Positions 3,580 through 11,080 of a stretch of 64,000 nt of DNA are shown here, piece after piece. Where the stretch lies: the NCBI RefSeq assembly GCF_006345805.1, contig NC_043006.1, positions 68,944,001 to 69,008,000 on the forward strand. Direction: 5' to 3'. The notes beneath the pieces were generated by a model. That model worked only from the letters and a program-made list of their open reading frames with translations. It was not told where the DNA came from and made no database searches. The position numbers were made by a program, and so were the translations under genes. This DNA is from Octopus sinensis. Lineage: Eukaryota. How positions within the stretch are numbered: the first letter of the stretch is position 1; each line of letters opens with the position of its first letter.

Positions 3580-4020
3580 GCCATGGCAAATAAAATGCTG
3601 ACAGAAGAAATGAAAAGACATGCAACCACGGTCGCTATAAATGTAAACCACAACGATTTAGAAATTACAACCTTCGTAAATGTTGCAAGATATTTTGTAC
3701 ACAAAGTTCGGATTGAACTGGAAGCTTGTGCCGATAATCTCTCCTCTCTATCAAAGACAAAAAGATATTCAAAACATTTTAACATTATAAGGACATTGCA
3801 GTTTATCTATCGGGTTCAAAGTATTATCGATAATGATCGAAAAAAAAAAAGCTTCAGTTATCAGAGTGACTATCAAAAGTATGGTGCAAGTGGACATTCG
3901 AAAGCAGTCGTACGTACTGTGGAGAGACCAGTTCCTGTCTACAAGGTCACGGGAAAATCGTTTTAATCGTGCAAAGCAGTTACATAACAAAGTTAAAATT
4001 CTTCACGAAAGAAGAATGCT
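3580..4020 (+). pseudogene. Tc1/mariner-type transposase N-terminal fragment
   Basis: LTEEMKRHATTVAINVNHNDLEITTFVNVARYFVHKVRIELE is an HTH-like N-terminus, followed by frameshifted sequence. Confidence 0.5.
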
Positions 4021-4603
4021 TTAATTTTTCTCTCGGTTCCGATTTCTGGATTAAGTCAAAAGAAACGCACCCAAGTGGTTACCAGCCCCGAAGTGATTGA
4101 AAATTAATTCAGTTCTAGGCGTTTCCTGAACAACTACATATGTGTCGAGGCTTGCTACGGAATTTCTACTTGGATATACTTGGGGTACTTAAATGTATTC
4201 AAAACTTTGCGTCTGCTTTTCTGTGGGAATGTTTAAGTATTTCATTTATTTTCATTTTGTGTTCCTCTCCGATGAAGAAAAAATTCTTTTTGGATGAATC
4301 CAGAAATCGGAACCAATTCGGGAATAACTTTCCTCGTTTCGACACATGGTGTAATAATAAAAGTGAAAATATTTGATGTCGTTAAACGATGTTTGTGTCT
4401 ATTGTTCAGCATATTGGTTAAGAAAATTTTTTCTTTTGCCCTTATTTATAATGATAGTTGTGTATATATGTATATATATATATTAACAATTAAGGAACGG
4501 CCATAATAGGCCATTCACCCACTAGAAATAACAGCCAAAGCTTCTACCGCAAATAAAGATTAATTCCGTTAACAGGAGAAAATTAAAAAAACATTTACCT
4601 GTA

Positions 4604-4709
4604 ATTTCTTGTACGGTATACCGTTTCATTCGCTGTTTAATGGTAAACTAACCTGATTAAATTAAATCAAGCCAATCTTCCATAAGCCCTCGAATTCTCA
4701 GCAAGAAAT
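4604..4709 (-). ncRNA. type I hammerhead ribozyme, inverted copy
   Basis: Reverse complement of 5450-5555. The core reads CTGAGA, one nt short, which is either a real deletion or a consensus error. Confidence 0.7.
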
Positions 4710-5449
4710 AGCTCAAGTCGGAACAGATATTTACACGAGGCATCTCGAACCTGCCAAGGCAATATCTGACCTAAAATTTTCAAATCGTCGCATCGCGCCA
4801 AATTTATCGGCAGCAAATAAAATCAGCCGTCGATTCCATTACGGAATTAACCAAAAAATCATAATTAATCAATATAGGGTAGCAAGGAAAATTTTGTAGA
4901 AATTTATTGCCACCAGCGGCCCAGTGGGAAAAAAATTAAATAGTCATAGACCATTTTTAAGTTCAACATTAACAATAAGGAACGGCCATAATAGGCCATT
5001 CACCCACTAGAAATAACAGCCAAAGCTTCTACCGAAATAAAGATTAATTCCGTTAACAGGAGAAAATTAAAAAAACAGGGTAATGTTTTTTTAATTTTCT
5101 CCTGTTAACGGAATTAATCTTTATTTGCGGTAGAAGCTTTGGCTGTTATTTCTAGTGGGTGAATGGCCTATTATGGCCGTTCCTTAATGTTAATGTTGAA
5201 CTTAAAATGGTCTATGACTATTTAATTTTTTTCCCACTGGGCCGCTGGTGGCAATAAAATTTCTACAAAAATTTCCTTGCTACCTATATTGATTATTATG
5301 AATTTTTGGTTAATTCCGTAATGGAATCGACGGCTGATATTTATTGCTGCCGATAATTTGGCGCGAGTGCGACGATTTGAAAATTTAGGTCAGATATTGC
5401 CTGGCAAGGTTCGAGATGCCTCGTGTAAATATCTGTTCCGACTTGAGCT

Positions 5450-5555
5450 ATTTCTTGCTGAAGAATTCGAGGGCTTATGGAAGATTGGCTTGATTTAATT
5501 TAATCAGGTTAGTTTACATTAAACAGCGAATGAAACGGTATACCGTACAAGAAAT
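5450..5555 (+). ncRNA. type I hammerhead ribozyme (Penelope/retrozyme type)
   Basis: Stem I atttcttg/caagaaat (8 bp); core CTGAAGA 5458-5464; stem II attcg...cgaat with a long loop; GAAA 5532-5535; palindromic stem III cggtataccg; GUA triplet, predicted cleavage after 5547. Confidence 0.85.
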
Positions 5556-5782
5556 TACAGGGTAAATGTTTTTTTAATTTTCTCCTGTTAACGGAATTAA
5601 TCTTTATTTGCGGGAGCTAGGCTTTGGCTGTTATTTCTAGTGGGTGAATGGCCTATTATGGCCGTTCCTTAATTGTTAATGTTGAACTTAAAAATGGTCT
5701 ATGACTATTTAATTTTTTTCCCACTGGGCCGCTGGTGGCAATAATTTCTACAAAATTTCCTTGCTACCCTATATTGATTAAT

Positions 5783-5870
<88 letters not shown>

Positions 5871-5873
<3 letters not shown>

Positions 5874-6017
5874 GAATAAATGAAAGAATGGAGTCGAACG
5901 ACGATTTTCAAAATTCCTTTACTCTCGACACATGTTTCGAAGGTTTCGAAACATGTGTCGAGAGTAAAGGAATTTTGTTAAAATAGTCGTTCGACTCCAT
6001 TCTTTCATTTATTCATA
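5871..6017. repeat. ~147-bp near-perfect palindrome centred on a hammerhead 3' half
   Basis: tatgaataaatgaaagaatggagtcgaacgac...ctctcgacacatgtttcga / tcgaaacatgtgtcgagag...gtcgttcgactccattctttcatttattcata; abuts (TA)n. Confidence 0.85.
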
Positions 6018-6249
6018 GTTATAAAAAATACAGACAAATTTACACACGAGAACACGGGATCCCTGCCCTTGGCATATAGCTTCAACCGTGTTTTCTGACG
6101 TGAATTTGCTACCCAGGTATCGGTTAACCGAATTATCCATACTAGAATAATTCATTCACCTTCTTATATATGTGTGTGTGTGTGTATGTGTGTGTGTATG
6201 CACGAGTGTGTATGTATATGTATATATATTCTTTTTTTAATCTTTTTAT

Positions 6250-9907: not shown

Positions 9908-11080
9908 AATGATACTGAAAGGAGAACGACGACCTAGAGAGTACAAAATGAATATATGGTACTGAAAGGAGAGCGACTACTTAGAGAGTACAAAATCAGT
10001 GTTTGATACTGAAAGGAGAGCGACGACCTAGAGAGTACAAAATGAATATATGGTACTGAAAGGAGAGCGACTACCTAGAGAGTACAAAATCAGTGTTTGA
10101 TACTGAAAGGAGAGCGACGACCTAGAGAGTATAGAATCAATGTATGATACTGAAAGGAGAGCGACTACCTAGAAAGTACAAAATCAGTGTTTGATACTGA
10201 AAGGAGAACGACGACCTAGAGAGTACAAAATGAATATATGGTACTGAAAGGAGAGCGACTACCTAGAGAGTACAAAATCAGTGTTTGATACTGAAAAGAG
10301 AGCGACGACCTAGAGAGTACAAATGATATATGGTACTGAAGGAGAGCGACTACCTAGAGAGTACAAAATCAGTGTTTGATACTGAAAGGAGAGCGACGAC
10401 CTAGAGAGTACAAAATGAATATATGGTACTGAAAGGAGAGCGACTACCTAGAGAGTACAAAATCAGTGTTTGATACTGAAAGGAGAGCGACGACCTAGAG
10501 AGTACAAAATGAATATATGGTACTGAAAGGAGAGCGACTACCTAGAGAGTACAAAATCAGTGTTTGATACTGAAAGGAGAGCGACGACCTAGAGAGTACA
10601 AAATGAATATATGGTACTGAAAGGAGAGCGACTACCTAGAGAGTACAAAATCAGTGTTTGATACTGAAAGGAGAGCGACGACCTAGAGAGTATAGAATCA
10701 ATGTATGATACTGAAAGGAGAGCGATGACCTAGAGAGTATAAACTCAATGTATGATACAGAAAGGAGAGCGAAGACCTAGAGAGTATAAAATCAATGTAT
10801 GATACAGAAAGGAGAGCGAAGACCTAGAGAGTACAATATCAATGTTTGATACTGAAAGGAGAGCGACGACCTAGAGAGTATAAAATCAATGTATGATACT
10901 GAAAGGAGAGCGAAGACCGAGAGAGTACAAAATGAATGTGTGCTACTGAAAAGAGAGCGACTACGTAGAGAGTACAAAATGAATGAATGATACTGAAAAG
11001 AGAGCGAAGACCGAGAGAGTACAAAATCAATATATGATACTGAAAGGAGAATGACGACCTAGAGAGTACAGAATCAGAGT
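9908..11080. repeat. 47-bp minisatellite, ~25 copies, with alternating A/B variants (94-bp higher-order unit)
   Basis: actgaaagga recurs at 9914, 9961 and 10008. Variants cgacgacc...aaatgaatatatgg and cgactacc...aaatcagtgtttga alternate. Confidence 0.95.

Follow-up and report, generated by a model that had tools for sequence, protein, structure and literature searches.

Two head-to-head arms of a repeated, hammerhead-bearing unit, flanked on both sides by (TA)n tracts, are present in the 64,000-nt window of Octopus sinensis DNA analysed here (Table 1), an arrangement already recognised in the first-pass annotation of this sequence. Each arm carries one ribozyme, 3 nt at the centre (5075-5077) are common to both arms, and beyond the (TA)n tracts the left and right flanks are unrelated unique sequence. 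Aligned to each other, the arms yield 583 matches, 5 mismatches and 16 gaps, the differences being mostly one-base indels typical of long-read errors. Relative to the column majority, the units of the window carry 11-15 deletions each (homopolymer indels) that are likely assembly errors. On account of these indels the unit reads 482-486 nt in the window, as first annotated, whereas the family unit is ~491 nt. The A missing from the minus-arm ribozyme core (4696-4701) is likely the same kind of assembly error, since core positions are nearly invariant in ~270 units.

Table 1. Features of the window insertion and of related element families (plain coordinates are window positions; L numbers denote sampled loci)
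Feature	Location	Strand	Description
Left arm	4482..5077	-	1.21 units; outer (3') end at short site S (unit position 119)
Left arm inner (5') end	5077	-	20 nt past predicted cut
Right arm	5075..5786	+	1.44 units; outer end at tail site T (unit position 225-226)
Right arm inner end	~5075	+	~9 nt past predicted cut
Tail, 106 nt	5681..5786	+	between S (5680) and T; right outer end only; predicted hairpins inside
Left (TA)n target tract	4461..4481		adjoins left arm
Right (TA)n target tract	5787..5873		adjoins right arm
Hammerhead copy in right arm	5450..5555	+	type I, long loop II, palindromic stem III; predicted cut after 5547
Second hammerhead copy	4604..4709	-	core one A short at 4696-4701
Predicted RT-recognition domain	5109..5318	+	helix 5109-5119/5308-5318 enclosing S and T; putative function
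Second retrozyme family	L089:7763-9070, L121-L150		unit ~535 nt; 776 candidates
Third two-armed family, remnant	5872-6165		ends at ~6023 and 6165; tail ~142 nt; 2131 candidates
Hydra-motif Penelope-like families	L201-L220		long open frames, 3' hammerhead; 15,035 candidates (EN query)
Young Neptune-type family	L087-L099		intact 781-aa RT-GIY-YIG frame; ~92-nt repeats in 3' UTR

The plus-strand copy of the hammerhead has the stems, CTGAAGA and GAAA boxes and palindromic stem III with which it was first described. Stem I pairs 5450-5457 with 5548-5555, CTGAAGA occupies 5458-5464, stem II pairs 5465-5469 with 5527-5531, and GAAA (5532-5535) is followed by the palindromic stem III CGGTATACCG (5536-5545). 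The Rfam Hammerhead_1 model aligned in its entirety at 5452-5553, at 15.7 bits (E 0.29) against a gathering score of 34, and the match is absent from the listing of a wider Rfam scan; the low score follows from a loop II of ~60 nt. Folding of the hammerhead region supports the hammerhead layout (z -3.8), and the whole ~491-nt unit folds well (z -5.8). Matches to miRNA families in the Rfam scan of the window were simple repeats or palindromes and were set aside, and a search of viral contigs with a 24-mer of the hammerhead gave no match.

Unit positions are given below on a natural copy (L038:4733-5223, 491 nt) in which the predicted cut lies after position 479. The core and stems of the hammerhead are intact in ~270 units. 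Double changes that keep a stem I pair were found at 388-480 in 16 loci and at 384-484 in 3, and for stem II at 398-461 in 5 loci, 399-460 in 22 and 400-459 in 10; these counts are of loci, not of events. Stem II is broken in 16 cells of the 106-locus alignment, and one-sided changes mostly yield G-U on the hammerhead strand. This pattern of substitutions argues that the hammerhead is under structural selection, and that the selection acts on the hammerhead strand.

The unit belongs to a dispersed family that occurs on many chromosomes with up to 12 units per arm. A search of the 2.72-Gb assembly with the unit returned 1630 candidates, 36 of which were scored to give 265 matches; among the unit matches listed, identity was 93-97%, the query itself apart. 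Exact end motifs had 139 genome-wide matches in the case of the young form of the short end, against 734 in that of the long end, the latter being common to older subfamilies (about 85-98% identity to the reference copy). The family consists of several hundred insertions (one end motif has no fewer than 734 exact matches), and the multicopy, dispersed nature of the unit is in keeping with its first reading as a candidate retrozyme. We examined 130 loci: 35 from the unit query, 14 from a rotated query, the window locus, and 40 anchored on each of the two end motifs. The S-anchored set comprised, in list order, the first 49 short-end matches minus 9 already in the sample, and the T-anchored set the long-end matches in list order, four being skipped as paired with sampled loci. 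One locus (L253) is complex and overlaps L057 and was left out of the joint count, leaving 129 loci, and L066 contains no unit. At L046:4162-5847 the entire two-armed insertion lies in a direct tandem duplicate (a genuine duplication or an assembly error).

The longest frame in the unit, of 66-68 codons, is unconstrained (16 synonymous, 31 non-synonymous and 3 stop variants), bearing out the annotation of the unit as non-coding; the 66-codon frame was rejected as a gene for lack of coding constraint. By this longest-frame analysis the unit has the retrozyme character of no protein coding and no LTR. A unit joined to an RT/GIY-YIG ORF was found at 0 of the 130 loci examined. The alternative named in the first-pass annotation, an ordinary pLTR always attached to a coding element, thus does not describe these copies.

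The main feature of the family, missed in the first reading, is that the outer (3') ends of the arms fall at two fixed sites, S (~119) and T (~225), which run directly into (TA)n. Two-armed insertions were present at 106 of the 129 loci, and 105 of these pair one S end with one T end; the exception is an arm running off the fetched stretch, and no two-armed locus has the same end twice (0/106). In the first 50 loci, 42 were two-armed (41 S+T, the remaining one off the stretch) and 8 were single. Among the 40 T-anchored loci the opposite S arm was found in 36, with 4 single. The scripted analysis of the 40 S-anchored loci gave 29 S+T, 3 irregular and 8 single; a T arm is visible by inspection in three of the irregular or single loci, and S+S was found in none. 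S lies 131 nt and T 237 nt downstream of the cut, so that their separation of 106 nt appears as a tail at one end only, with two fixed bounds, in 105/106 two-armed loci. Arm length varies from 0.03 to 12.4 units; the longer arm is the S arm in 23/41 loci, and the lengths of the S and T arms are uncorrelated (rho -0.16, n = 41). Any target-site duplication would be hidden by the (TA)n on either side. By analogy with coding elements, S+T pairing with a 106-nt tail corresponds to the "inverted copy plus tail" signature of Penelope-like elements.

The same tail and inversion occur in coding elements, the assembly is rich in indel errors, and among the pieces of short-read contigs listed over 5000-5160, a minority of the total, none bridges 5077. 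The insertions might on these grounds be taken for pLTR remnants of a coding Penelope-like element or for a fold-back artefact of long reads. Such a reading is already largely refuted, and we regard it as extremely improbable: the 130 loci lack a joined ORF, the arms are multimers of the unit alone, and the S+T rule is followed at 105 loci and again in two other families. A fold-back chimera would mirror both sides, yet at the window locus the flanks and the outer ends differ left and right, which rules out the chimeric read that had been considered as a source of this junction.

We aligned 161 units and found that all units of both arms at a locus carry the locus's own variants. Across the 106 loci, in columns with four or more units, there were 384 locus-fixed, 26 partly shared and 372 single-unit variants; the first 50 loci gave 102, 19 and 186, and 30 haplotypes. 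Three older loci have fixed, partial and single variants in the proportions 41/0/10 (L282), 44/0/31 (L287) and 44/1/5 (L294). Among clean transitions, away from homopolymers, 45/50 were singletons as compared to 23.4 expected under gradual duplication, a star-like pattern that is inflated by the sequencing errors included among singletons. A 28-mer of the L119 haplotype has 12 matches in the genome, all within the 13 units of L119 and in both arms. Given the locus-uniform haplotypes and the scarcity of partly shared variants, the arrays appear to pass through a single-unit bottleneck and then to expand at once. These haplotypes support the proposal, made when the locus was first annotated, that the arms are cDNA of more than unit length from a monomer-derived template. 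With S at just 131 nt and T at 237 nt past the cut, any longer arm must traverse the cut junction. The junction is crossed 288 times with one small indel at 479-480, plus two 13-16 nt duplications spanning the cut in L107. A circle, closed or nicked, would be the simplest template. In L034 the T-run right after the cut is 7-10 nt longer in several units of both arms. Contigs from four putative RNA runs (four studies, two coded organisms) cover 29/29 bins of the unit and join unit end to start; such contigs cannot distinguish a circle from a tandem nor show transcription, and they were not used as evidence.

Growth after insertion has been proposed for vertebrate retrozymes (10.64898/2026.07.22.740005), and here it would mean that short insertions were lengthened by unequal crossover and homogenised by gene conversion. 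Seventeen variants common to 2-3 units of one arm, some of them adjacent, are consistent with such satellite birth. In older loci, however, singletons are plentiful and partly shared variants nearly absent. Fixation in one arm together with absence from the other was seen for no variant, and later growth leaves both the ends at the cut and the S+T rule unexplained. We consider it very unlikely.

The inner (5') ends of the arms are enriched just downstream of the predicted cut. In the first 50 loci 28/92 arms end 0-35 nt past the cut, as do 18/72 arms in the end-anchored sample, which is blind to length (p = 3e-6); three of the end-anchored inner ends fall exactly on the first base after the cut. 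Counted per pass, stops at the cut number 28/314 and 16/115 (9-14%), some 3.5 to 5.5 times the background. The excess is not a matter of AT content alone, since equally AT-rich windows near unit 106-118 hold only 1-2 inner ends. The first-pass annotation had both arms starting just past the cut, which holds for the window locus (+9 and +20) and is a trend, not a rule, in the family. The excess persists in arms with two or more turns, 22/56 of which have inner ends within -5..+35 of the cut. Inner ends also cluster, though weakly, near unit 195-260 (16/89, p = 0.14; 16/61, p = 0.012, with the cut cluster removed), and this second cluster was not retained.

The two arms end within 5 nt of each other at 16/106 loci as compared to a permutation mean of 3.6, although mapping artefacts account for about 3 of these (L222, L300 and perhaps L256). 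Several of these symmetric centres sit at hairpins or at the stem III palindrome, as would be expected if cDNA from a circle snapped back and primed the second arm, with an endonuclease then cutting at the other fixed site. Self-priming has been proposed for head-to-head palindromes of Penelope (PMC3846280), and the tail has been attributed to endonuclease resolution (PMC8557442). We judge fold-back to be unlikely. The majority of centres are asymmetric, and the longer arm may be at either site, yet the starting end is never repeated at any locus. In addition, of 9 variants common to both arms, none lies at mirrored distance from the centre (a weak test), and the structural selection appears to act on the hammerhead strand, not on the antisense strand that the 2013 model requires. 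Both strands were extended in vitro by a Penelope-like protein (PMC11167929).

We conclude with high confidence that the family is a non-LTR retrozyme mobilised by Penelope-like machinery. The insertions were probably made when a Penelope-like RT-endonuclease dimer copied one monomer by rolling-circle reverse transcription, target-primed on both strands (twin priming). An array would be transcribed and the hammerhead would excise 491-nt monomers, each of which would then be sealed or, with the nick left in place, kept circular by the ribozyme stems. The dimer would nick both target strands in (TA)n, one RT subunit priming at T (225) and the other at S (119). Each subunit would travel the circle for 0 to 12 turns, synthesis would halt randomly, at the cut (on 9-14% of passes) or at a shared break, and the two cDNA ends would be joined head-to-head via microhomology. 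The Penelope RT of the first-pass annotation is retained in this scheme and gains the Penelope-like insertion signature in its favour, with the change that copying would start at two internal sites, one per arm.

That arms of two or more turns still show a surplus of ends at the cut is difficult to obtain from a covalently closed circle in an RNA:DNA hybrid, and would need a nicked circle or linear multimers. Linear templates might be hammerhead-cut multimers, made by RNA rolling-circle replication of one variant circle or from an array, or one cut monomer used with repeated template jumps. They would be in keeping with ends at the cut after many turns, including in the longest arms (L119, L043, L053), with a double run-off on the same turn at the window locus and L058, and with the duplications across the cut in L107, which look like restarts; RNA-RNA replication has been floated for mussel retrozymes (PMC7229834). 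Genomic read-through, however, cannot yield a haplotype unique to a 13-unit locus unless its source is absent, and the source array of L119 could be missing from the haploid assembly. Jumps between free ends should leave scars, yet the 288 crossings are nearly clean, and L228, L252 and L300 would require S and T on different units. Linear templates seem to us unlikely, and twin priming on one circularised or nicked monomer remains the reading we favour.

We found related insertions in at least one other non-coding family (Table 1). The second family is ~60% identical to the unit over positions 40-325 (score 55; best of 40 shuffles 41). Its ends are homologous to S and T and lie ~127 nt apart, giving a tail of ~127 nt. 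A terminal T end was found in 16/30 loci, each with an opposite S end, and an analogous helix built from other sequence is predicted to enclose S and T. The third family, whose remnant shares the right (TA)n tract with the window insertion, was followed to 24 other loci with a query that favoured the long end. An opposite arm is present in 16 of them, in each case with its end at the short site; L094 holds a fuller copy with a type I hammerhead. Other diverged hammerhead elements, or relatives of the second family, occur at L099:8435-9110, L164, L170, L206:6700-8100 and L248, which suggests a wider set of such families.

The genome contains intact RT plus GIY-YIG frames that fall into a Neptune-type and a Hydra-type group. 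Upstream of the Neptune-type frame, and overlapping it, lies a 479-codon frame that belongs to no known family; Penelope-like elements do not usually have two ORFs. The Hydra-type group has the Hydra-defining CxCx5C linker and CxxC and CxH motifs. Its coding family inserts into (TA)n, shows inverted arms and has 3' ends at two places, 80-85 nt from each other; its hammerhead, 3' and in sense orientation, combines a long loop II with a palindromic stem III. The complementary end pair was seen in L205 and L214, the sole loci with both ends mapped among 16 compared. No coding element similar to the unit was found among the sampled RT/GIY-YIG loci (best E 0.066), a small sample of ~5,000 and ~15,000 candidates. 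An 18-nt antisense match between unit 105-122 and a Neptune-type ORF (E 0.81) was taken as chance, and scores of the second family against coding elements were discarded because the query included flanking (TA)n. Since no sampled element matches the unit in sequence, a helper can be proposed on architecture, by which a Hydra-clade element is the likeliest candidate. Naiads are disfavoured in this role, being described as without canonical hammerheads and as remnants in cephalopods (PMC8557442).

Retrozymes, their link to Penelope and the rolling-circle idea are already published, and the new part is the anatomy of two-armed insertion. Retrozyme circles were demonstrated in coral, mussel and axolotl, with tandem cDNA by a Penelope-like RT as a proposal (Cervera and de la Pena 2020, PMC7229834). 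Circular templates were proposed for Penelope-like elements by the same authors in 2014, when opposite-strand ribozyme pairs were also noted (PMC4209133). A 2020 review describes animal retrozymes as having no conserved motif indicating a helper (PMC7761336), and Li et al. (2026, 10.64898/2026.07.22.740005) tie retrozymes to pLTRs by phylogeny and favour local amplification. Neither the main text of PMC7229834 nor that of the Li et al. preprint contains the word "inverted", and the available text of the preprint mentions neither tails nor inversions. Both are described in coding elements (Craig et al. 2021, PMC8557442; Arkhipova et al. 2013, PMC3846280) and in a curation guide (PMC8969392). 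A purified Penelope-like protein cleaves and extends both strands, with two internal start sites that bound the tail and serve both strands equally (Frangieh et al. 2024, PMC11167929). In that study the hammerhead proved dispensable in vitro, and reads that end at its cut were not seen. Equal use of two sites on both strands does not alone yield strict S+T pairing.

The family is a retrozyme by every testable feature. It resembles metazoan non-LTR retrozymes (PMC7229834) in its non-coding tandem unit, canonical type I hammerhead, low GC, dispersed multimers beside Penelope-like elements and fit to a model leading from circRNA to tandem cDNA. Those retrozymes are described as head-to-tail tandems of ~170-400 nt (51-972 in the Li et al. 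preprint). Here the majority of loci have two multimer arms pointing away from each other, with start sites fixed at two positions, a microsatellite as target and a hammerhead whose loop II is long; the RNA circles demonstrated for those retrozymes are inferred in this family. With EN+ Penelope-like elements (PMC8557442, PMC3846280, PMC11167929) the family shares the head-to-head inversion, a tail at one end, an AT-rich or (TA)n target and a hammerhead upstream of two RT start sites. Their tail is 30-40 nt and is called optional, in contrast to 106 nt and S+T pairing in 105/106 loci here, where both arms are multimeric and no ORF is present. Hydra-clade elements (PMC8557442) likewise have a canonical hammerhead and (TA)n insertion, and the Hydra-motif family in this genome has the same two-end, inverted-arm layout, but with a tail of 80-85 nt and no sequence match to the unit, so that its helper role is putative. 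The Chlamys element MRC1 (PMC8557442) is also a non-autonomous Penelope-like derivative with multicopy head-to-tail insertions; it is algal, and Chlamys elements are mostly without canonical hammerheads, and similarity to a helper is detectable there but not here. We found no literature report of two-armed multimeric retrozymes, of obligatory S+T pairing or of locus-uniform haplotypes, although subscription journals, Repbase entries and supplements may hold one. In LINE-1 twin priming, cDNA is primed by both target strands on one RNA and a head-to-head inversion results; its arms do not overlap, the second site is variable and the template is linear. In the present family, in contrast, both sites are fixed and the arms overlap over many turns.

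The published open questions on these elements are the origin of tandem and inverted Penelope-like copies and of their tail, the role of the hammerhead, and the return of retrozymes to the genome. A non-coding template of 491 nt, with its two start sites mapped, a (TA)n target and more than 100 scored insertions, brings these questions within reach of a small in vitro and cell assay, and the family discriminates between published models (a circle, self-priming on antisense RNA, later satellite growth). We tentatively suggest that the arrays may be a fossil record of twin rolling-circle target-primed reverse transcription by an asymmetric RT dimer on one circle. If so, a single step would account for three features of all EN+ Penelope-like elements (the head-to-head inversion, the tail on one side and the partial tandems), the hammerhead would act as a monomer bottleneck and a stop signal, and the missing genomic proof for retrozyme mobilisation would be supplied. 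At least two non-coding families in this genome, perhaps a third, would then ride on the process. A compact RNA written as long multimers into a microsatellite is also of interest for retroelement-based genome engineering.

Two other repeats were seen in the window. A short inverted repeat pair at 4020-4340 contains hammerhead-like words by eye and has no similarity to the unit, and a 47-bp minisatellite of ~25 copies occupies 9909-11076.
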